Source: Candidatus Woesearchaeota archaeon (lineage in GTDB: Archaea; Nanobdellota; Nanobdellia; SCGC-AAA011-G17; GW2011-AR20). Taken from it: a stretch of DNA of 63,980 nucleotides. Positions 1,078 through 30,334 of this stretch are shown here, piece by piece. The notes beneath the pieces were generated by a model, which searched no databases, had not been told where the DNA came from, and saw only the letters and a program-made list of their open reading frames with translations. Position numbers and translations under genes: made by a program. The DNA lies in contig JAGVZQ010000003.1 in assembly GCA_018302465.1 (NCBI GenBank), positions 1-63,980 on the forward strand, read 5' to 3'. Every line of letters begins with the position of its first letter. Within the stretch, counting starts at the first letter, position 1.

Positions 1078-1782
1078 ATGAAATTAGACCAGCATTTTAT
1101 GATTAATGAAGAATTATGTGAAAGAATAGTTTCTCATCTAAAAATAAAAAAAGATGAAACTGTGCTTGAAATAGGCCCCGGAAAAGGGGCATTGACAAAA
1201 TACATAATAAAGAAAACTGATAAATTAGTGGTAATAGAACTAAGTTATAAATTATCATCAGAATTAATCTCGAAATTTAAAAATGTAGAAGTCTTAAATG
1301 AGTCAATAACTAATTTCAAGGAATTAGATTTTGATAAAATAATAGGAAACCTACCTTATTCAGTGATAGAATCTTTAGTAAGGCCTTTAATTATAAGCAA
1401 GTTTAACCTAGCAGTATTTACAGTTCCAAATAATTTTATGAAAAAGGGCATGTTAAAACTATTGCTTCCTATGTTTTTTGAAATAGAAACATTAGAGGAA
1501 GTAAATAAAGACGCTTTTTTTCCAAAACCAAAAATAAAATCTAAAGTTATATCAATAAAGCATAAAGAAATGAATGAAAAAGAAAAAGTAATAAGGAAAA
1601 TTTATTTACAATCAGATAAGAAGCTAGAAAATGCTGTTCGTGAATCTTTCTGTAAAATATTAAAATTAACTAAAAAACAATCAAAAGAAAAAGTTCCAAA
1701 ATTAAGCTTTTTAGATAAAAGAGTTTATACTTTAAATTTAGATGAATGGAAGGAAATAGTTAAAGAAATTGAAAAAGAATAG
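1078..1782 (+). CDS. rsmA: 16S/18S rRNA (adenine-N6,N6)-dimethyltransferase KsgA/Dim1 (RsmA)
   Basis: LDQHFMINEE...VLEIGPGKGALT...IGNLPYS motifs. Start placed at the ATG at 1078, because the longer ORF-track start at 1009 lies inside the duplicated repeat. Confidence 0.8.
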   Translation: MKLDQHFMINEELCERIVSHLKIKKDETVLEIGPGKGALTKYIIKKTDKLVVIELSYKLSSELISKFKNVEVLNESITNFKELDFDKIIGNLPYSVIESLVRPLIISKFNLAVFTVPNNFMKKGMLKLLLPMFFEIETLEEVNKDAFFPKPKIKSKVISIKHKEMNEKEKVIRKIYLQSDKKLENAVRESFCKILKLTKKQSKEKVPKLSFLDKRVYTLNLDEWKEIVKEIEKE

Positions 1783-1800
1783 AGTTAGGTTAAACAACAA

Positions 1801-1887
1801 GCGCCAATAGTCTAGGGGTCAAGATAGGGCCTTCCCAATAATTAAAGGAATCAGGCTCTGACCGGGGTTCAAATCCCCGTTGGCGCA
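1801..1887 (+). tRNA. tRNA-Gly(CCC) with a 15-nt canonical 37/38 intron (1838-1852)
   Basis: Acceptor GCGCCAA/TTGGCGC, T-arm CGGGG-TTCAAAT-CCCCG, anticodon stem GGGCC/GGCTC, loop TTCCCA|..|A. BHB: TTCC(32-35) pairs with GGAA, with 3-nt bulges CAA and TCA. Confidence 0.85.
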
Positions 1888-1925
1888 TTCAAAAGGTTTA
1901 TAAACAAGTTATACTTAGTATAACT

Positions 1926-2141
1926 ATGATAGAAGCCAAATTAAAAATAAAGAAATGGGGAAATTCATTAGGAATAATCCTTCCGACTAATATAGTCAGA
2001 AAAAAGAATCTGAAAGAAGGAAGCACAATAGAATTTCTAGTTCCGGAAGGTAAGAATGTAGATTTAGAAAAAGTATTTGGAACATTTAAATTTAAAAAAT
2101 CTGCCCAACAAATGAAAGATGAAATGAAAGAAGGATGGTAA
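1926..2141 (+). CDS. AbrB/MazE (SpoVT)-family antitoxin
   Basis: KIKKWGNSLGIILP motif. 71 aa. Overlaps the downstream PIN gene by 7 nt. Confidence 0.65.
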   Translation: MIEAKLKIKKWGNSLGIILPTNIVRKKNLKEGSTIEFLVPEGKNVDLEKVFGTFKFKKSAQQMKDEMKEGW

Positions 2142-2512
2142 ACTACTTCTTTGATAGCTACGCATTAATAGAAATAATAAATGGTAATGAAAACTATAAA
2201 GGCTATACAAAATCGAAAGTAATAATAACAAAAATTAACCTAATTGAATGCTACAATAGTTGGATTTCAGAAATGGGAGAAGAAAAAGCAGACTACTATT
2301 TCAGTTTTTTCAAGCCCTGCTGCATAGAGATTTTAGATAAAGATATAAAAGACGGAGTTAAATTTAGAATACATTTAAAAAGTAAGAATAAAAAGATTAA
2401 TCCAAGTTATATAGATTGTATAGGATATGTAATCTCATTGAGATTAAACATAAAATTCCTAACAGGAGACAATGCATTTAAAGATTTACCAAACGTGGAG
2501 TTTGTAAAATAA
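2135..2512 (+). CDS. PIN-domain toxin (VapC-like)
   Basis: N-terminal YFFDSYALIEI, about 125 aa, translationally coupled to the antitoxin. Confidence 0.55.
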   Translation: MVNYFFDSYALIEIINGNENYKGYTKSKVIITKINLIECYNSWISEMGEEKADYYFSFFKPCCIEILDKDIKDGVKFRIHLKSKNKKINPSYIDCIGYVISLRLNIKFLTGDNAFKDLPNVEFVK

Positions 2513-4756: not shown

Positions 4757-5200
4757 ATGAAAAAATTAATTTTTTTAATTCTTGTATCATTACTAATAAC
4801 TAGTTGTGGGTCAGATAATCCTCAGAATATTAAAGAACAGGATAACTTAGAAATAATTGTTCCAGAAACTACAGAAGTTGGTAGTGTAGATATAACTATT
4901 CCTGAAGCAGAAACAATTGAAGTAAGGAATATGATGAATTCCAACAAGGGAACAGGGATGATGACTTTATTAAACATGGAAGAAGTTAAAAAACATAATT
5001 CAAGAGAAAGCTGTTATTCAGTAGTTGATGATAAGGTATATGATTTAACATCATGGATAGACCAGCATCCTGGAGGAGCAAGTAACATTCTAAAAATATG
5101 TGGTATAGATGGAACTTCCGCCTTTAGGGGAAAGCATGATAACAACCCCAAACAAGCGAATCAGTTAGAAGAATTCTTTATTGGTGATTTAGTAAAATAA
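4757..5200 (+). CDS. Lipoprotein with a cytochrome b5-like heme/steroid-binding domain
   Basis: Lipobox LLITSCGS. CYSVVDDKVYDLTSWIDQHPGG motif. Confidence 0.7.
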   Translation: MKKLIFLILVSLLITSCGSDNPQNIKEQDNLEIIVPETTEVGSVDITIPEAETIEVRNMMNSNKGTGMMTLLNMEEVKKHNSRESCYSVVDDKVYDLTSWIDQHPGGASNILKICGIDGTSAFRGKHDNNPKQANQLEEFFIGDLVK

Positions 5201-5203
5201 GTA

Positions 5204-5325
5204 TGGGCCTGATCAGATTTGAATTCGTCGATAATTTCTTACCTCTGACGACCCCCACCTTATCAGACTCACCTTCTCTTTATCTAGGAAAATGTGGTGC
5301 TCTAACCAGGCTGAGCCACAGGCCC
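5204..5325 (-). tRNA. tRNA-Ile(GAT) with two non-canonical BHB introns: 30/31 (26 nt, 5268-5293) and 53/54 (21 nt, 5224-5244)
   Basis: Acceptor GGGCCTG/CAGGCCC with A73, D-arm GCTC-AGCCTGGTTA-GAGC, loop CTGATAA. Intron 1 BHB: CACC/GGTG, bulges ACA/AGT, inner helix TTTTC/GAGAA. Intron 2 BHB: CGTC/GACG, bulges AGA/AAT, inner helix GGTAA-GAAA-TTATC. The spliced product is a 75-nt cloverleaf. Confidence 0.8.
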
Positions 5326-6129
5326 ATAGTAAGAATTAATATCAACAACACCTTTTAAAATCTTTCGCCTTTCAATTATATTTGTGTTAGGCGGACAAAA
5401 TCCAAATTTCTTCCATACATCATATTTAGTAAGGTGTTTAGATGAACTAAAACCAATTTTATCCATCCAAATATCCAGATTTTTCCTACCACTAATATCA
5501 ATCTGGTGTTCGAAATTTATCTTTCCATTTCTATAGTTTCTTAAATTATAACATACACAAGAATTTATTTTTAAATTATCTAAAATGAACTTGACAAATA
5601 TAATTAAACTTTTACTCTGACTATTGATCCCTATAGAGGGATAGTAATTCCTTCGTTTGTATCTTTTCTTAAAGCTTATGCAACCATCCGTGTCAGTTAA
5701 ACCTTTCAAAAAAGCCTTCTTAATTCTAAAATTTGAACTTTTTATTAGGCTAGGAACATTCATATCTCTTTTAGAACCAGCAGGAAGGCCTATTACCCGA
5801 TTTAAAAAATAAAAAACAGCTTTTGATCTAAAACTAGTTCTTATTGTTGTTTTATTTCCAGCGTAAACCCATACTTTAATATTAAATAAATCCTTGATTA
5901 AGGGTGCTATGTAATCTTTATGAAATTCTGCTTCGTCAATTTCATGTCCATAGTATTCAACATTGTAATCAATAGTATTACAGGTTTTCCGTTTATACGC
6001 ATTAAGACAACCATCGCCAACATGGACACCAATAAAATAAGCCAATTTTTGAGTCATTTTAGTAGGAATAGTAACTTTTCTGTTAATATCAGATTTATTA
6101 AAATCAATCTTAGGAATATCCAGTTTCAT
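5302..6129 (-). CDS. Free-standing double-motif LAGLIDADG homing endonuclease-like protein
   Basis: LAYFIGVHVGDGCL and FLKGLTDTDGCI motifs. The C-terminal region is homologous to ORF 29480-30169. The last 8 codons (YGPVAQPG*) are read from the tRNA-Ile 5' exon. Confidence 0.85.
   Translation of the reverse strand: MKLDIPKIDFNKSDINRKVTIPTKMTQKLAYFIGVHVGDGCLNAYKRKTCNTIDYNVEYYGHEIDEAEFHKDYIAPLIKDLFNIKVWVYAGNKTTIRTSFRSKAVFYFLNRVIGLPAGSKRDMNVPSLIKSSNFRIKKAFLKGLTDTDGCISFKKRYKRRNYYPSIGINSQSKSLIIFVKFILDNLKINSCVCYNLRNYRNGKINFEHQIDISGRKNLDIWMDKIGFSSSKHLTKYDVWKKFGFCPPNTNIIERRKILKGVVDINSYYGPVAQPG
5353..5360 (-). promoter_or_regulatory. Candidate TATA box (TTTTAAAA) of tRNA-Ile, embedded in the LAGLIDADG coding sequence (codons I-L-K)
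   Basis: 27 nt separate the box from the mature tRNA 5' end. The same octamer sits at the equivalent codons upstream of the tRNA at 30185. Confidence 0.5.
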
Positions 6130-6150
6130 AAAAAATTAACAAAATTAGTA

Positions 6151-6193
6151 TTTATAAGTCTCGCGCGAGAGGTTGTCCGATGGACTAGTGAGT
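6151..6193 (-). promoter_or_regulatory. Conserved promoter module, copy A: 28-nt core (6166-6193), 7-nt spacer, TATA (6151-6158)
   Basis: Minus-strand reading: ACTCACTAGTCCATCGGACAACCTCTCG-N7-CTTATAAA, with 21 nt to the ATG. Near-identical to the copies at 22148 and 29415. Confidence 0.7.
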
Positions 6194-6257
6194 TGAATAT
6201 ATATTTTAAATTATACAAAATGAGATAGACTTTTTTGTTTTAAAATACTATTCATCA

Positions 6258-6869: not shown

Positions 6870-6956
6870 AAATCTATAGATTATTTAATCCTTTATAATG
6901 TTTTTGAAGTAGATGTTAGAAAATAAAAAAGAACTAAAAGCTTAGAAAAGATAAGT

Positions 6957-7029
6957 CGCCCCAACGAGGACTTGAACCTCGGACCTTTTGGTTAACAGCC
7001 AAACGCTCTACCAACTGAGCTATTGGGGC
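6957..7029 (-). tRNA. tRNA-Asn(GTT), intron-less
   Basis: GCCCCAA-TA-GCTC-AGTTGGTA-GAGC-G-TTTGG-CTGTTAA-CCAAA-AGGTC-CGAGG-TTCAAGT-CCTCG-TTGGGGC-G. Confidence 0.9.
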
Positions 7030-7067
7030 ACATCAATATAGAGTTAGAATACAATTTAAAAGAATTT

Positions 7068-20897: not shown

Positions 20898-22130
20898 ATG
20901 CCTGTTAATCCTAAATTCATATCCAAGAATGAGTTAAGGAAAATAATACAGGAGAATTACATAGGTTTTGAAAAAATAACTAAATTAGACAAGCAGGATT
21001 TCTTCGGCTCTTCCCCCCCTACAATATTTATTGGCTCTAAATTGCGCTATCCTCAGGTAAATGTAGGTATTCTAAGCCCGCCAGAAGAAACAGAAAGTGC
21101 ATGGATTCATGATGCTCAGACCTACTGGCCTCAAACAGATTTTACAATAGGAGATATTATAAAATTAAGATCAGCTTTAATCAATTCAAGGTTCACAACA
21201 ACTGTAAAATCTTTTTCTTCAGATAATAAGTTCTTAGACATAGCCCAGGAGATTGGAATTGGTTCTAAACCTGTAGATATAGAAATATCATTAAAAAAGA
21301 AACCAAAATTTTCCACAAGTTTTGATAATATAAGACTACCCATGGGACCAGGAGTTAGGTTAGAAAAGGTAAGAATCACAGAAAATGTTAAAGTAAATCC
21401 AACAGTTGACAAAATAATCTCTGATGTTGATCTAAAAGCAAATGACGCCTCTAATTATTTATTTTCAAAAGGTATAGATGAGCATACAATTTCTCAATTG
21501 CTTACGATTGGAGTTCTAGGATTAAAAAAGAACAGAAAACTAGTTCCAACTAGATTTTCAATAACCGCAACAGATGACAATATAGGGAAAAATATAATAA
21601 AGGAAATAAAAGATTATAATCCAATAGATGATTTCAGAATTTACGAAGGGAATTATTTTGGAAATTATTATTACATTCTGATGTTTCCGGGCGTTTTCAA
21701 TTATGAATTATTTGAAGGTTATATGCCAAGGAGCAGTTGGAATTCTCATTCGGGAGAGATAAAATGGGCAACAGATTCTGAAACTCATTTTGGGAGAAAA
21801 ACCTACGCTTCTAATACTGTTGGAGGTTATTATGCTGCTAGACTTCCAATTTTACATCATTTAAAACAAATGAAAAGACAAGCATTAGTTTTAGTTATAC
21901 GATTTGAAACAGAGGAATATTATGCTGCACTTGGAGTCTGGGTTGTAAGGTCAGCAGCAAGAAAAGCTTTAAGCAACAAAGAAAGAACTTTTGATTCAAA
22001 AGAAAACATGTTAAAGTATCTAAGGGCAGTTATCTATGGAAAGTTTAATTATGATATTGATATTATTCTTAAAAGAAGTGTTATGATGAATAGTATATTA
22101 AAACAAAAAAATCTTTCCCAATTTATATAA
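20898..22130 (+). CDS. nreA: NreA-like archaeal DNA repair protein (DUF650/DUF651)
   Basis: FFGSSPPTIFIGSKLRYPQVNVGILSPP N-terminal pattern and a size of about 410 aa, as recalled for the Nre family. Confidence 0.55.
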   Translation: MPVNPKFISKNELRKIIQENYIGFEKITKLDKQDFFGSSPPTIFIGSKLRYPQVNVGILSPPEETESAWIHDAQTYWPQTDFTIGDIIKLRSALINSRFTTTVKSFSSDNKFLDIAQEIGIGSKPVDIEISLKKKPKFSTSFDNIRLPMGPGVRLEKVRITENVKVNPTVDKIISDVDLKANDASNYLFSKGIDEHTISQLLTIGVLGLKKNRKLVPTRFSITATDDNIGKNIIKEIKDYNPIDDFRIYEGNYFGNYYYILMFPGVFNYELFEGYMPRSSWNSHSGEIKWATDSETHFGRKTYASNTVGGYYAARLPILHHLKQMKRQALVLVIRFETEEYYAALGVWVVRSAARKALSNKERTFDSKENMLKYLRAVIYGKFNYDIDIILKRSVMMNSILKQKNLSQFI

Positions 22131-22147
22131 TATAAAATATATTTTCC

Positions 22148-22190
22148 ACTCACTAGTCCATCGGACAACCCCTCGCACCAACTTTATAAA
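22148..22190 (+). promoter_or_regulatory. Conserved promoter module, copy B: 28-nt core (22148-22175), 7-nt spacer, TATA (22183-22190)
   Basis: ACTCACTAGTCCATCGGACAACCCCTCG-N7-TTTATAAA, with 23 nt to the ATG at 22214. Confidence 0.7.
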
Positions 22191-22213: not shown

Positions 22214-23013
22214 ATGGATTCAAACAAGGCTCTGGTTGTTTTTCAGGGAAAACAGGTAAGAAGAAAATGGTTTAATGATGAATGGTGGTTTTCTGTAGTT
22301 GATATAGTAGGAGCATTAACTCAAACAGATAGAGCCAGAAAATATTGGTCTGATCTAAAAACCAAGCTTCAGGATGAGGGTTTTGAAGTGTCCGAAAAAA
22401 TCGGACAGTTGAAATTAATGGCAGAAGATGGTAAATTAAGGCTCACCGATTGTGCCAACACAAAAAATATGTTTAGGATTATCCAATCTATCCCATCCCC
22501 CAAAGCAGAACCTTTCAAGATGTGGCTGGCACAAGTTGGTTATGACAGAGTAAAAGAAATAGAAAACCCAGAATTAGCCCAAAAAAGAATGAAAGAAATC
22601 TATAAGCAAAAAGGCTATTCTGATGAATGGATAGAAAAGAGAGTAAGAGGCATAGCTATAAGAGATGAGTTAACAGATGAATGGGATAAAAGAGGAGTTA
22701 AAACAGACAAAGAATTCTCAATTTTAACAGCTGAAATTTCAAAAGCAACTTTTTTAATAAAGAAAATCTAAGAGACCACATGAATGATTTAGAATTAATT
22801 TTCACAATGTTAGGGGAAAGAGTGTCTACTGAAATAACAAGAACAGAAGACAAGCAGGGATTTAAGGAGGCAGAGGATGCAGCTAAAAGAGGAGGAAAAA
22901 TCGCAGGTAATGCAAGAAAAGAAACAGAAAAAGAGTTAAGAAAACCAATAACCTCAAAAGAAAATTATCTTGAAGAGCCGGAAATTTATAAGAAAAAAAG
23001 ATTAAGCAAGTGA
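22214..23013 (+). pseudogene. Bro-N / DinD-like (phage antirepressor-type) gene split into two ORFs (22214-22771 and 22780-23013) by a -1 frame change at a T6 run
   Basis: The N-terminal part, VFQGKQVRRKWFNDEWWFSVVDIVGALT, is a Bro-N domain. The second ORF frame reads ..FFNKENLRDHMNDLELIFTMLGE..KRGGKIAGNARKE, the usual C-terminal half of DinD-like proteins. The frames join at T TTT TTA (22750-22756). Confidence 0.7.
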
Positions 23014-29296: not shown

Positions 29297-29383
29297 GGGC
29301 TCGTAACTCAGCTTGGATAGAGTGCTAGCCTTCTAAGCTAGAAGTCGTGGGTTCAAAATTCAATGAAAATCCCATCGGGCCCG
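29297..29383 (+). tRNA. tRNA-Arg(TCT) with a 12-nt BHB mini-intron in the T-loop (59/60; 29358-29369)
   Basis: Acceptor GGGCTCG/CGGGCCC with G73, anticodon arm CTAGC-CTTCTAA-GCTAG. T-arm GTGGG-TTCA-AAA-TTCAA-TGAA-AAT-CCCAT. Splicing after the 2nd bulge nucleotide yields the T-loop TTCAAAT. Confidence 0.85.
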
Positions 29384-29414
29384 CATTTTTATTATTATTT
29401 AATATATATTTTTC

Positions 29415-29457
29415 ACTCACTAGCCCATCGGACAATCTCTCGGGTGAGGTTTATATA
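29415..29457 (+). promoter_or_regulatory. Conserved promoter module, copy C: 28-nt core (29415-29442), 7-nt spacer, TATA (29450-29457)
   Basis: ACTCACTAGCCCATCGGACAATCTCTCG-N7-TTTATATA, with 22 nt to the GTG at 29480. Confidence 0.7.
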
Positions 29458-29479
29458 TTGAAGGTTAAAGAATACTATT

Positions 29480-30169
29480 GTGAGAAAGACAAATATCTAT
29501 GAATTCATTGGAGTGATAATTGGAGACGGTTCCCTCCTGTATAACCCAAAGAGGAGAGTTTACAGACTTGAAATAGCGGGAAATGCCACAGAAGATTATC
29601 CTTATTTTTTAAAGTTAAAACAGTTTATGGTGAAAAGTATGGGATATACACCAAAAATAAGATTCAGGACACACAAAAAAGGAAGAAGCATTTGCTTATA
29701 TTTGGATAATAAAAAGTTTTTAGAGTTTATGAAGAGTCTAGACTTACCATTTGGGAAAAAAACTTTTACAATAACTATCCCTAGTAATTTTCTTAACTGG
29801 AAATATTCAAAACACATAATAAGGGGAATCTTTGAAAGTGATGGTTCACTTTACTTTTCAAAAAGTAAGATAACTACAAATAAACCAACCTATCCCCGAA
29901 TAGAGATAAAAACTTCAAGTGAAAAACTAGTGTATCAAATAAAAAGTATCTTAAGTGAGAATGGTTTTAGTGTACAAACTATAGCTCCAAAAAGAGATAA
30001 AGCTACTAAGATTTACATTTCAGGGGAAAGAATGTTGAATAAGTGGATTGATGAGATCGGATTTAGCAGTAGAAAAAATTTGACCAAATATCTGTATTGG
30101 GATAAATTAGGATACTACACACCTCGTTCTACACTAAGGCAAAGAGAAACCCTTTTAAAATCTCCTTAG
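29480..30169 (+). CDS. Free-standing double-motif LAGLIDADG homing endonuclease-like protein (GTG start)
   Basis: YEFIGVIIGDGSL and IIRGIFESDGSL motifs. C-terminal ISGERMLNKWIDEIGFSSRKNLTKY is homologous to 5302-6129. Confidence 0.85.
   Translation: MRKTNIYEFIGVIIGDGSLLYNPKRRVYRLEIAGNATEDYPYFLKLKQFMVKSMGYTPKIRFRTHKKGRSICLYLDNKKFLEFMKSLDLPFGKKTFTITIPSNFLNWKYSKHIIRGIFESDGSLYFSKSKITTNKPTYPRIEIKTSSEKLVYQIKSILSENGFSVQTIAPKRDKATKIYISGERMLNKWIDEIGFSSRKNLTKYLYWDKLGYYTPRSTLRQRETLLKSP
30153..30160 (+). promoter_or_regulatory. Candidate TATA box (TTTTAAAA) of the downstream tRNA, embedded in the last codons (L-L-K) of the LAGLIDADG gene
   Basis: 24 nt separate the box from the tRNA 5' end at 30185. 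Confidence 0.5.
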
Positions 30170-30184
30170 TTAATTTCATATAAG

Positions 30185-30322
30185 GGGCACATCGCCAAGA
30201 TGAGTTATTCATGGCAACGGTTAAGGCAGTCGATATTCCAAAAGAATAGCTGAACCTGCAGACCATTTGGCCGAGAGCGACTATCGCAGGTTCGAAATTT
30301 AACGAAAATCCTGCTGTGCCCT
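30185..30322 (+). tRNA. tRNA-Cys(GCA)-like gene with four predicted introns: D-loop (30200-30217), 30/31 (30233-30254), 37/38 (30262-30275), 59/60 (30297-30308)
   Basis: Acceptor GGGCACA/TGTGCCC with U73. Three introns have clean BHBs (GCCA/TGGC, CAGT/GCTG, TTCG/CGAA, each with 3-nt bulges and inner hairpins). The 37/38 intron has bulges AGA/AGA and a central helix with a U33 mismatch. The spliced 72-nt product folds as GCCA-AGCGGTTA-AGGC, GTCGC-CTGCAGA-GCGAC, GCAGG-TTCGAAT-CCTGC. Confidence 0.6.
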
Positions 30323-30334
30323 TTTTTAATTAAA

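Follow-up and report, generated by a model that had tools for sequence, protein, structure and literature searches.

The window analysed here, meaning the whole stretch of 63,980 nucleotides (nt), comes from contig JAGVZQ010000003.1 of a Candidatus Woesearchaeota archaeon. On its minus strand, an open reading frame (ORF) for a LAGLIDADG endonuclease runs into the 5' end of a tRNA-Ile(GAU) gene, and this ORF, the cassette that holds it and its relatives beside other tRNA genes are the subject of this report. Related loci used for comparison carry L numbers. The features of the ORF/tRNA-Ile locus, in the order in which they are read, are as follows.

6870-6909, minus strand: native tRNA-Ile promoter CTTCAAAAACATTATAAAGG with a 20-nt spacer, before the inserted gene memb203 (6869-6258)
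6150-6208, minus strand: left end of the cassette, with the conserved element core CACTAGTCCATCGGACAAC at 6190-6172 and the TATA box TTATAAAT at 6157-6150
5302-6129, minus strand: endonuclease ORF, 275 amino acids (aa), ATG start
5367-5362 and 5360-5353, minus strand: putative B recognition element (BRE) CGAAAG and TATA box TTTTAAAA for tRNA-Ile, at the codons R-K-I-L-K
5326-5352, minus strand: TATA-to-start spacer of 27 nt, coding for the last nine structured residues G-V-V-D-I-N-S-Y-Y
5325-5204, minus strand: tRNA-Ile(GAU) gene, 122 nt, with two introns
5325-5294, 5267-5245 and 5223-5204, minus strand: tRNA-Ile exons 1, 2 and 3
5293-5268, minus strand: tRNA-Ile intron 1, 26 nt, position 30/31
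5244-5224, minus strand: tRNA-Ile intron 2, 21 nt, position 53/54, in the T-arm
5191-5203, minus strand: T-rich tract TACTTATTTTACT, directly 3' of tRNA-Ile

The ORF and the tRNA gene overlap by 24 nt. The stop codon TAG (5304-5302) is nt 22-24 of the tRNA-Ile gene, the final eight codons of the ORF (GGG CCT GTG GCT CAG CCT GGT TAG) are at the same time the acceptor and D-arm of the tRNA, and residues 269-275 (GPVAQPG) are encoded by tRNA sequence. Slightly further upstream, the I-L-K codons form TTTTAAAA, which exactly 27 nt separate from the tRNA-Ile +1; CGAAAG-A-TTTTAAAA spans -42 to -28 relative to this position and the TATA box itself -35 to -28. These observations bear out the original prediction, which had placed the end of a 275-aa minus-strand LAGLIDADG ORF in the D-loop of tRNA-Ile, read its last codons as tRNA acceptor and D-arm and noted an I-L-K box 27 nt 5' of the tRNA. 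The prediction had also allowed that a sequence error might have produced the overlap. The full ORF is intact in L082 and L085, with its 3' end reading into tRNA-Ile as in the window, and the same 3' end is found in L091, which has an apparent mid-ORF frameshift, and in the mosaic allele L092. Thus, with the same junction in four further loci, the overlap is not a sequencing error. The ORF body and tRNA-Ile are not separated by any T-tract of at least 5 nt, and the first good T-tract, TACTTATTTTACT, is likely the terminator of tRNA-Ile and of any read-through endonuclease transcript. Given a stop codon that falls within the tRNA and a first T-tract located 3' of it, read-through endonuclease/tRNA transcripts probably also occur, and one may speculate that their processing by RNase P would remove the stop codon.

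Neither ARAGORN nor Rfam (gathering search) called a tRNA-Ile at 5325-5204, because the gene contains two non-canonical bulge-helix-bulge (BHB) introns; it was recovered by enumerating splice variants, followed by BHB analysis. With both introns removed, the tRNA-Ile(GAU) proves genuine: the 75-nt product is accepted by ARAGORN as a cloverleaf and can be aligned over its full length with the tRNA-Ile of the relatives L003 and L057, which lacks introns. Both introns form BHB motifs with perfect 4-bp central helices and 3-nt bulges. Intron 1 has the helix CACC/GGTG with bulges ACA and AGT, and intron 2 the helix CGTC/GACG with bulges AGA and AAT; the outer helix of the latter is absent, so this motif is relaxed. 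Additionally, the helices covary across alleles, with CACT/AGTG in L001 and CCGC/GCGG in L088 and L089.

The ORF product matches Pfam LAGLIDADG_3 (E 5.6e-10) and carries two LAGLIDADG helices in one chain (motif 1, LAYFIGVHVGD39G; motif 2, FLKGLTDTD148G), and NCBIfam returned sub-threshold intein-type matches only. The AlphaFold model (predicted local distance difference test, pLDDT, 94; predicted template modelling score, pTM, 0.91) has the pseudo-dimeric alpha-beta-beta-alpha-beta-beta-alpha fold. Its best Foldseek matches are I-DmoI chains, with a target template modelling score of 0.72-0.79 and a root-mean-square deviation of ~3.5 A, and the WhiA complex and bI3 maturase are also among the structural matches. 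A profile of 38 homologues compared with the PDB matches the TliVMA intein, PI-PfuI and I-DmoI. By its motifs and predicted fold, the protein is a monomeric double-motif LAGLIDADG endonuclease of the I-DmoI type. LAGLIDADG endonucleases cleave DNA specifically at sites of 14-22 bp and leave 4-nt 3' overhangs. The catalytic acids are kept in 38/38 homologues (D39 throughout, and D or E at position 148), and the ratio of nonsynonymous to synonymous substitutions (dN/dS) is ~0.17 against the 60%-identical orthologue L001; the protein is on these grounds apparently maintained by selection and probably catalytic. A site-specific endonuclease activity with its own cleavage target is what the sequence predicts. 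C-terminal to the I-DmoI-like core, the family has a specific C-terminal module of four helices (aa 215-268), its most conserved part, with the consensus KHLTKYxVWKKFGFCPPxT...R.KILKG. Searched alone against 1.8 billion representatives, the module was found in 348 clusters, nearly always at the extreme C-terminus, in proteins of about 250-280 aa. The tRNA-encoded tail 269-275 is predicted to be disordered (pLDDT 46).

Contact with a tRNA gene is widespread in the family. Homologues comprise 89 proteins of 26-99% identity, and homologue C-termini are translated tRNA 5' ends, e.g., GPVAQPG, GPVA, KGL, ...SRPRSSVGRAAK and AGMPERSNGTV. We chose 80 reference-genome loci by the peptide WK[KNR][FY]G[FY]CP[PS]; since this peptide is 29 codons from the junction, the choice is unbiased towards tRNAs. 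The hosts are Woese-, Pace-, Nano-, Iain-, Aenigm- and Micrarchaeota (DPANN archaea), 78/80 loci were informative, and downstream tRNAs were scored by ARAGORN and inspection. At 66 of the 78 informative loci, a tRNA lies within ~215 nt downstream of the ORF, and at 54 the ORF end touches or enters it, compared with a chance expectation of ~0.4% (binomial p ~1e-112). Between the conserved Trp codon and the tRNA end lie 83-105 nt across loci and 87 nt in the window. The tight co-directional class has 39 loci (41 with the two copies of the window), another 12 are co-directional with an extra 25-125 nt, and in the 15 loci of the convergent class the ORF stop either falls within the tRNA 3' end or is 0-6 nt away from it. 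Among the partner tRNAs are Ile, Leu, Arg, Ser, Lys, Asn, Met, Cys, Trp, Phe and Ala, and in a rough neighbour-joining tree the enzyme clades track partner tRNA and orientation (Ile, Leu, Arg-TCG and convergent clades). A second tRNA is located 70-100 nt upstream of the ORF start in at least a dozen loci; thus, the cassette often fills the whole tRNA-tRNA spacer. Many partner tRNAs are intron-free, so an intron is not required, and elsewhere the introns of the partners are often numerous. A scan of viral contigs found distant LAGLIDADG proteins only, most without the C-terminal module, and no sign of a viral family. In the literature searched, whose coverage is incomplete, we found neither tRNA-flanking LAGLIDADG genes in archaea nor an endonuclease ORF carrying a tRNA promoter. 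The family is apparently large, undescribed and placed beside many different tRNA genes.

Archaeal tRNA genes need an upstream BRE/TATA. An archaeal promoter consists of an A/T-rich 8-mer ~25-35 nt upstream of the start, with a purine-rich BRE before it, and initiation occurs ~25 nt downstream. The sequence at -42 to -28 of tRNA-Ile conforms to this pattern, and in the tight co-directional class the whole region upstream of the tRNA is coding. A TATA-like hexamer is present at the I-L-K codons in 28/41 tight co-directional members vs 0/15 convergent ones (Fisher p 5e-6); the convergent members write Leu as TTG, CTT or CTA, and their next residue is non-Lys. In 43 ordinary tRNAs of the same contigs, an A/T block occupies -32 to -27 and hexamer starts peak at -33 to -30. 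The embedded boxes, with hexamer starts peaking at -35 to -32, lie 2-3 nt further upstream than these ordinary tRNA promoters. The 73%-identical L088 shows many synonymous differences from the window over the last 50 codons, the only exempt stretch being CGA AAG ATT TTA AAA GGT. In L001, an orthologue without tRNA contact, ILD is written TTTTAGAT and the TATA-like box is degraded. The endonuclease gene is lost in L086 and L089, where the last 72 and 48 nt of the ORF, respectively, with the BRE/TATA and spacer, are kept before tRNA-Ile. On account of the class-specific codons, the promoter position, the synonymous conservation and the natural deletions in L086 and L089, the I-L-K codons appear to act as the TATA box of tRNA-Ile, with transcription presumably starting at or just upstream of the tRNA +1.

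In a sister class with a Trp-to-tRNA distance of ~139 nt (L003, L005, L018, L043, L057 and L004), the ORF ends in ...P-K-S-L-stop, encoded by CCAAAATCTTTATAAA. This sequence is the BRE/TATA of the partner tRNA, ~50 nt before the tRNA, and the stop codon TAA is part of the TATA box. The tight class may be derived from the sister-class state by compaction. The general rule of the family is the welding of the ORF 3' end to a tRNA end rather than promoter donation, as about one fifth of the members are convergent and supply no promoter. The earlier suggestion of an element that settles upstream of tRNA genes and re-supplies their promoter is supported for tRNA-Ile, where the native promoter has been displaced and L086 and L089 keep the BRE/TATA, and does not extend to the convergent fifth. 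The alternative offered alongside it, co-transcription followed by RNase P processing, probably operates in addition.

The allele states of the locus were drawn from a metagenome scan with the tRNA-Ile 5' exon and from the genome loci, over the block aTrm56 - tRNA-Asn ... tRNA-Ile - methionyl-tRNA synthetase (MetRS). L087 is empty: tRNA-Asn is followed by a 65-nt spacer with the native promoter GTTCAAAACATTTATAAAA and then by tRNA-Ile. The spacer is filled by the cassette alone in L092 and by memb203 and the cassette in the window, L082 and L085. In L001, the cassette lies beside tRNA-Asn and is followed by four reversed genes, the native promoter and tRNA-Ile; L081 is arranged as L001, with another ORF replacing the enzyme. 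L086 and L089 have footprints only. Thus, empty, filled and footprint alleles occur at the same site among related genomes, and both empty (L087) and filled (L094) ones are present in the metagenome Ga0209541. The comparison that the original prediction had proposed, with a relative whose tRNA-Ile upstream region is uninterrupted, is provided by L087, which carries the native promoter where the cassette now sits. In the alignment, the native block TTCAAAA..TTTA.AAA is the same in the window, L087, L081 and L001. It lies 20-25 nt before the memb203 ATG in the window, which is its distance to the tRNA-Ile +1 in L087, L081 and L001; the insert (memb203 and cassette, 6869-5326) thus occupies precisely the interval from the old promoter to the tRNA-Ile +1.

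Sharp changes in identity mark the edges of the cassette. Compared with L085, the window has ~72% identity over aTrm56, tRNA-Asn and memb203, and 97-100% from ~6208 through tRNA-Ile. Compared with L092, the host flank is 87.5% identical and the 5' two-thirds of the enzyme gene only ~63% (proportion of synonymous differences, pS, 0.81, i.e., saturated synonymous sites), and the last 270 nt of the ORF together with the tRNA are 96-100% identical; homology starts at 6208. From this contrast it follows that the enzyme alleles are older than, or foreign to, the divergence of the hosts and have recombined with a tRNA-side breakpoint inside the ORF. The window also holds two endonuclease paralogues beside different tRNAs. 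On the other side of tRNA-Ile, L082 is 99.5% identical to the window over 8227-4959 and then lacks 4959-4394 (the N-terminus of a cytochrome-b5 gene and a DoxX-like gene); beyond 4394 its identity is only 79.5% in MetRS, which places a recombination or deletion boundary just beyond tRNA-Ile.

The second endonuclease copy of the window and its neighbours lie as follows.

29405-30323, plus strand: second family cassette, with the upstream element at 29405-29458 and the ORF at 29480-30169
30153-30160, plus strand: second-copy box TTTTAAAA, at L-L-K codons, 23 nt before the tRNA
30184 to about 30323, plus strand: multi-intron tRNA, 3' of the second endonuclease ORF
29297-29383: tRNA-Arg(TCT), upstream of the second ORF, with a 12-nt T-loop intron

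The second ORF encodes 229 aa with 30% identity to the first endonuclease and has a weak match to Pfam LAGLIDADG_WhiA; Rfam called only a 59-nt fragment of tRNA-Arg(TCT). A repeat of 58-120 nt, with the core CACTAGTCCATCGGACAAC and then a TATA box, is found at 6150-6257 (minus), 22071-22190 (plus) and 29405-29458 (plus), upstream of both endonuclease genes and of a gene with a Bro-N domain (22214-22771); within 22071-22190, the copy of the conserved element lies at 22133-22190. The repeat includes a small palindrome, GTCC-ATC-GGAC, and marks the left boundary of the shared cassette block (~6208). At the first copy, TTATAAAT is 20 nt before the endonuclease ATG, which implies a leaderless or near-leaderless mRNA. 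An exact search for the CACTAGTCCATCGGACAAC core in the 80 genome loci gave no match; a looser motif, CACTGGACA, lies upstream of many family members, including those of other phyla. The CACTAGTCCATCGGACAAC/CACTGGACA element is a candidate operator, or a candidate promoter module that mobile genes share. L086 (1950-2837) has a tRNA-Asn/tRNA-Ile island with a Bro-N gene similar to that at 22214-22771. The tRNA-Asn/tRNA-Ile spacer is a hotspot for cargo genes that differ between genomes.

We interpret the locus as a homing-endonuclease cassette of the free-standing kind, which occupies tRNA flanks and whose 3' coding end contains a replacement promoter for the tRNA, and we give this reading a probability of about 0.72. 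The gene is free-standing, with its own TATA box, a tRNA-Ile that is complete without an upstream exon, and no flanking repeats or exon fragments. The ~880-bp cassette (6208-5326), consisting of its own promoter and the I-DmoI-like ORF, would have filled the space before tRNA-Ile(GAU), each endonuclease lineage keeping to one tRNA with its ORF 3' end joined to the 5' or 3' end of that tRNA. For such an element, tRNA genes would offer a conserved recognition sequence right beside dispensable DNA. The insertion would have parted tRNA-Ile from its native promoter, so that the R-K-I-L-K codons of the last helices would now be the BRE/TATA and the nine codons 3' of the TATA box the TATA-to-start spacer. 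The frame would run into the tRNA to the first stop, the TAG in the D-loop, and the disordered 7-residue tail would be a by-product with no evident function. Gene conversion among related genomes, whether triggered by the endonuclease or ordinary, would let the cassette spread and persist. On decay of the enzyme gene, its promoter-bearing end would be retained, since the tRNA needs a promoter. The homing step itself, i.e., the cutting of an empty allele and the copying of the gene with its flanks, is suggested by the identity blocks and the mosaic allele.

Several points weigh against this interpretation. Sharp identity blocks could be obtained by ordinary homologous recombination. The synteny of tRNA-Asn, enzyme and tRNA-Ile extends down to 40% protein identity (L006), and old synteny together with purifying selection fits long vertical residence and possibly a host function. 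At ten to twelve of the 78 loci, including the syntenic orthologue L001, there is no tRNA at the ORF 3' end. The contrast in TATA-like codons is partly phylogenetic, as the convergent members belong mainly to one clade, and in an AT-rich genome I-L-K codons easily yield AT runs. Moreover, an ordinary tRNA of the window, at 1801-1887, has its promoter region (1770-1800) inside the last codons of the upstream ORF (...EWKEIVKEIEKE*), so an overlap of promoter and ORF alone is not special. What is distinctive is the systematic, family-wide welding of ORF and tRNA and the reuse of conserved helix codons, not the promoter/ORF overlap itself.

Alternatively, tRNA-Ile could be made by co-transcription only, from an endonuclease mRNA that starts at ~6129, and is freed by RNase P and the splicing endonuclease, with TTTTAAAA being a mere AT-rich I-L-K. 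An mRNA whose stop codon lies inside the tRNA must reach into the tRNA, and it meets the first good T-tract past the tRNA; R-x-x-I-L is, moreover, conserved at the protein level even in convergent members. We nevertheless consider this unlikely. L086 and L089 lack the promoter and body of the enzyme yet keep precisely the BRE/TATA piece, and the gene upstream in L089 is divergent, so that read-through cannot supply tRNA-Ile there. TATA-like codons are found in none of the 15 convergent members and are degraded in L001, the box is at the normal tRNA promoter distance, and co-transcription would make an essential single-copy tRNA hang on the promoter of a selfish gene. Similarly improbable is a domesticated LAGLIDADG protein with vertical inheritance, i.e., a WhiA-like DNA-binding host factor or an RNA maturase that acts on tRNA genes or intron-rich pre-tRNAs. 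Purifying selection, a conserved C-terminal helical module with a consistently terminal position across the 348 cluster representatives, the WhiA complex and bI3 maturase among the structural matches, the old synteny in L001 and L006, and linked tRNAs that are often intron-rich all agree with such a role. WhiA and maturases typically lose the LAGLIDADG catalytic acids, whereas both acids are present in every member here. Further against domestication, close relatives are polymorphic for presence, absence and footprint, and L087 does without the gene at the locus; enzyme alleles with 63% nucleotide identity lie between host flanks of 87.5% and a 98% identical block; and several paralogues per genome stand at different tRNAs.

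A compact genome with tiny intergenic spacers, in which ORFs run into their neighbours, might bring a tRNA into contact with an ORF without meaning, as in the promoter of the tRNA at 1801 and in the tRNA-less loci L009 and L011, where the ORF overlaps the next protein gene instead. This explanation is refuted by the 54/78 touching loci against ~0.4% expected, the near-constant spacing and the correlation of lineage with tRNA, and we leave it hardly any probability. An equally faint chance remains for an ORF that lies inside a giant tRNA intron or leader, as in archaeal rRNA introns. The model for it would be L007, whose tRNA-Lys has an 839-nt anticodon-loop intron with a LAGLIDADG ORF, but the L007 protein is 19% identical and lacks the C-terminal module. 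At the window locus, the intron-encoded origin is refuted by a tRNA-Ile that is complete from nt 1 with no upstream exon, by an ORF with its own promoter, and by the lack of any tRNA fragment or repeat 5' of the ORF. When the surroundings of the ORF were searched for repeats, nothing meaningful emerged, neither target-site duplications nor a second copy of the tRNA 5' exon, and transposon-like and giant-intron readings were rejected on this result. The L007 gene, a tRNA-Lys(CTT) at 1389-2301 (minus), has its 839-nt intron at the canonical anticodon-loop position, and its LAGLIDADG_3 ORF is apparently frameshifted near the start. To our knowledge, a BHB intron that carries an endonuclease has not been described in a tRNA gene.

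The introns of the tRNA-Ile alleles follow the endonuclease in part. All endonuclease-linked alleles (window, L085, L088 and L089) share the T-arm intron at 53/54 and a compensated T6:A67 acceptor pair, vs C6:G67 and no T-arm intron in the endonuclease-free alleles (L087, L081 and L001); the contigs of L086 and L092 end before the T-arm, and both at least share T6. The anticodon-stem intron at 30/31 is found in both allele groups and is absent from L088. In the window, 3/3 tRNAs flanking endonuclease genes have T-arm or T-loop introns, and the other three tRNAs do not. The tRNA-Asn orthologue upstream of the cassette in L092 (230-370) has several short introns, and the window tRNA-Asn (6955-7030) has none. 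tRNA intron content in this lineage turns over fast. A tentative and rather doubtful extension of the homing interpretation is that the cleavage target lies inside the tRNA gene, as for the phage enzyme SegB, and that the T-arm BHB intron and T6:A67 make the carrier genome immune. The correlation of intron and T6:A67 with the endonuclease may instead reflect shared ancestry, and the many intron-free partner tRNAs elsewhere speak against immunity. If the idea were true, the enzyme gene, the resistant tRNA allele and the intron would be co-converted into sensitive genomes, and endonucleases beside tRNA genes would drive, at the DNA level, the gain and spread of odd tRNA introns and, more generally, the disruption of tRNA genes in DPANN archaea and perhaps in others. 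The origin of oddly placed archaeal tRNA introns is a long-standing puzzle, and a connection of mobile endonucleases with the unusually numerous non-canonical tRNA introns of DPANN archaea would be concrete and testable.

The homing interpretation would add a chromosomal archaeal LAGLIDADG counterpart to the free-standing homing endonucleases of phages, with tRNA gene ends as its niche. A selfish gene that takes over the promoter of an essential tRNA would be hard to remove, as the decayed alleles illustrate. Standard annotation misses the arrangement since the partner tRNA genes contain several introns and thereby escape ARAGORN and Rfam. The locus would also be a clean natural case of dual coding, in which the codons of a protein helix also form a BRE/TATA and the convergent members provide an internal control, and the family would supply natural enzymes with probable specificity for different tRNA-gene sequences.

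Yeast Ty3, Dictyostelium TRE5 and the integrases of phages and integrative and conjugative elements likewise use tRNA genes as conserved, safe landing marks, and Ty3 integrates only a few nt from where tRNA transcription begins. These systems rely on an integrase or reverse transcriptase and on RNA polymerase III factors or att sites, and they do not replace the tRNA promoter, unlike the cassette of the window. WhiA, which is among the fold matches, resembles the window protein in its LAGLIDADG scaffold with C-terminal helices; it is, however, bacterial, vertically inherited and without the catalytic acids, whereas the window family keeps both acids and is polymorphic in its presence. I-DmoI, I-Tsp061I, PI-PfuI and the TliVMA intein are likewise archaeal single-chain enzymes with the two motifs and conserved catalytic acids. 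In contrast to I-DmoI-type enzymes, which reside inside rRNA introns or inteins, the window enzyme is free-standing with its own promoter, has the extra module at aa 215-268 and is linked to the ends of tRNA genes.

A further point of comparison is collaborative (trans) homing, in which an intron interrupts the recognition site in the host gene; one example, the cyanophage F-CphI system, reportedly targets psbA. In T4 mobE/I-TevIII, a free-standing endonuclease acts with an ORF-less intron (PMC2790892). The window locus likewise has a free-standing endonuclease beside an intron-containing gene, in the alleles with the T-arm intron and T6:A67. Its introns are, however, BHB and not group I introns, many partner tRNAs are intron-free, and the placement of the intron in the cleavage site is conjectural. 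The nearest parallel is SegB of phage T4, which is a free-standing GIY-YIG homing endonuclease in the T4 tRNA cluster whose gene is missing from relatives; it promotes the inheritance of itself and of neighbouring tRNA genes, and its 27-bp site includes the conserved T-psi-C stem-loop (PMC2330249). Both SegB and the window family are free-standing endonuclease genes among tRNA genes and are absent from some relatives. SegB is a GIY-YIG enzyme of a phage, whereas the window family is LAGLIDADG, sits on a cellular chromosome and has a predicted cleavage activity; SegB is not known to have a welded ORF/tRNA junction or an ORF-embedded promoter, unlike the window family. SegB is the closest concept, and I-DmoI and the archaeal intein endonucleases are the closest protein relatives.

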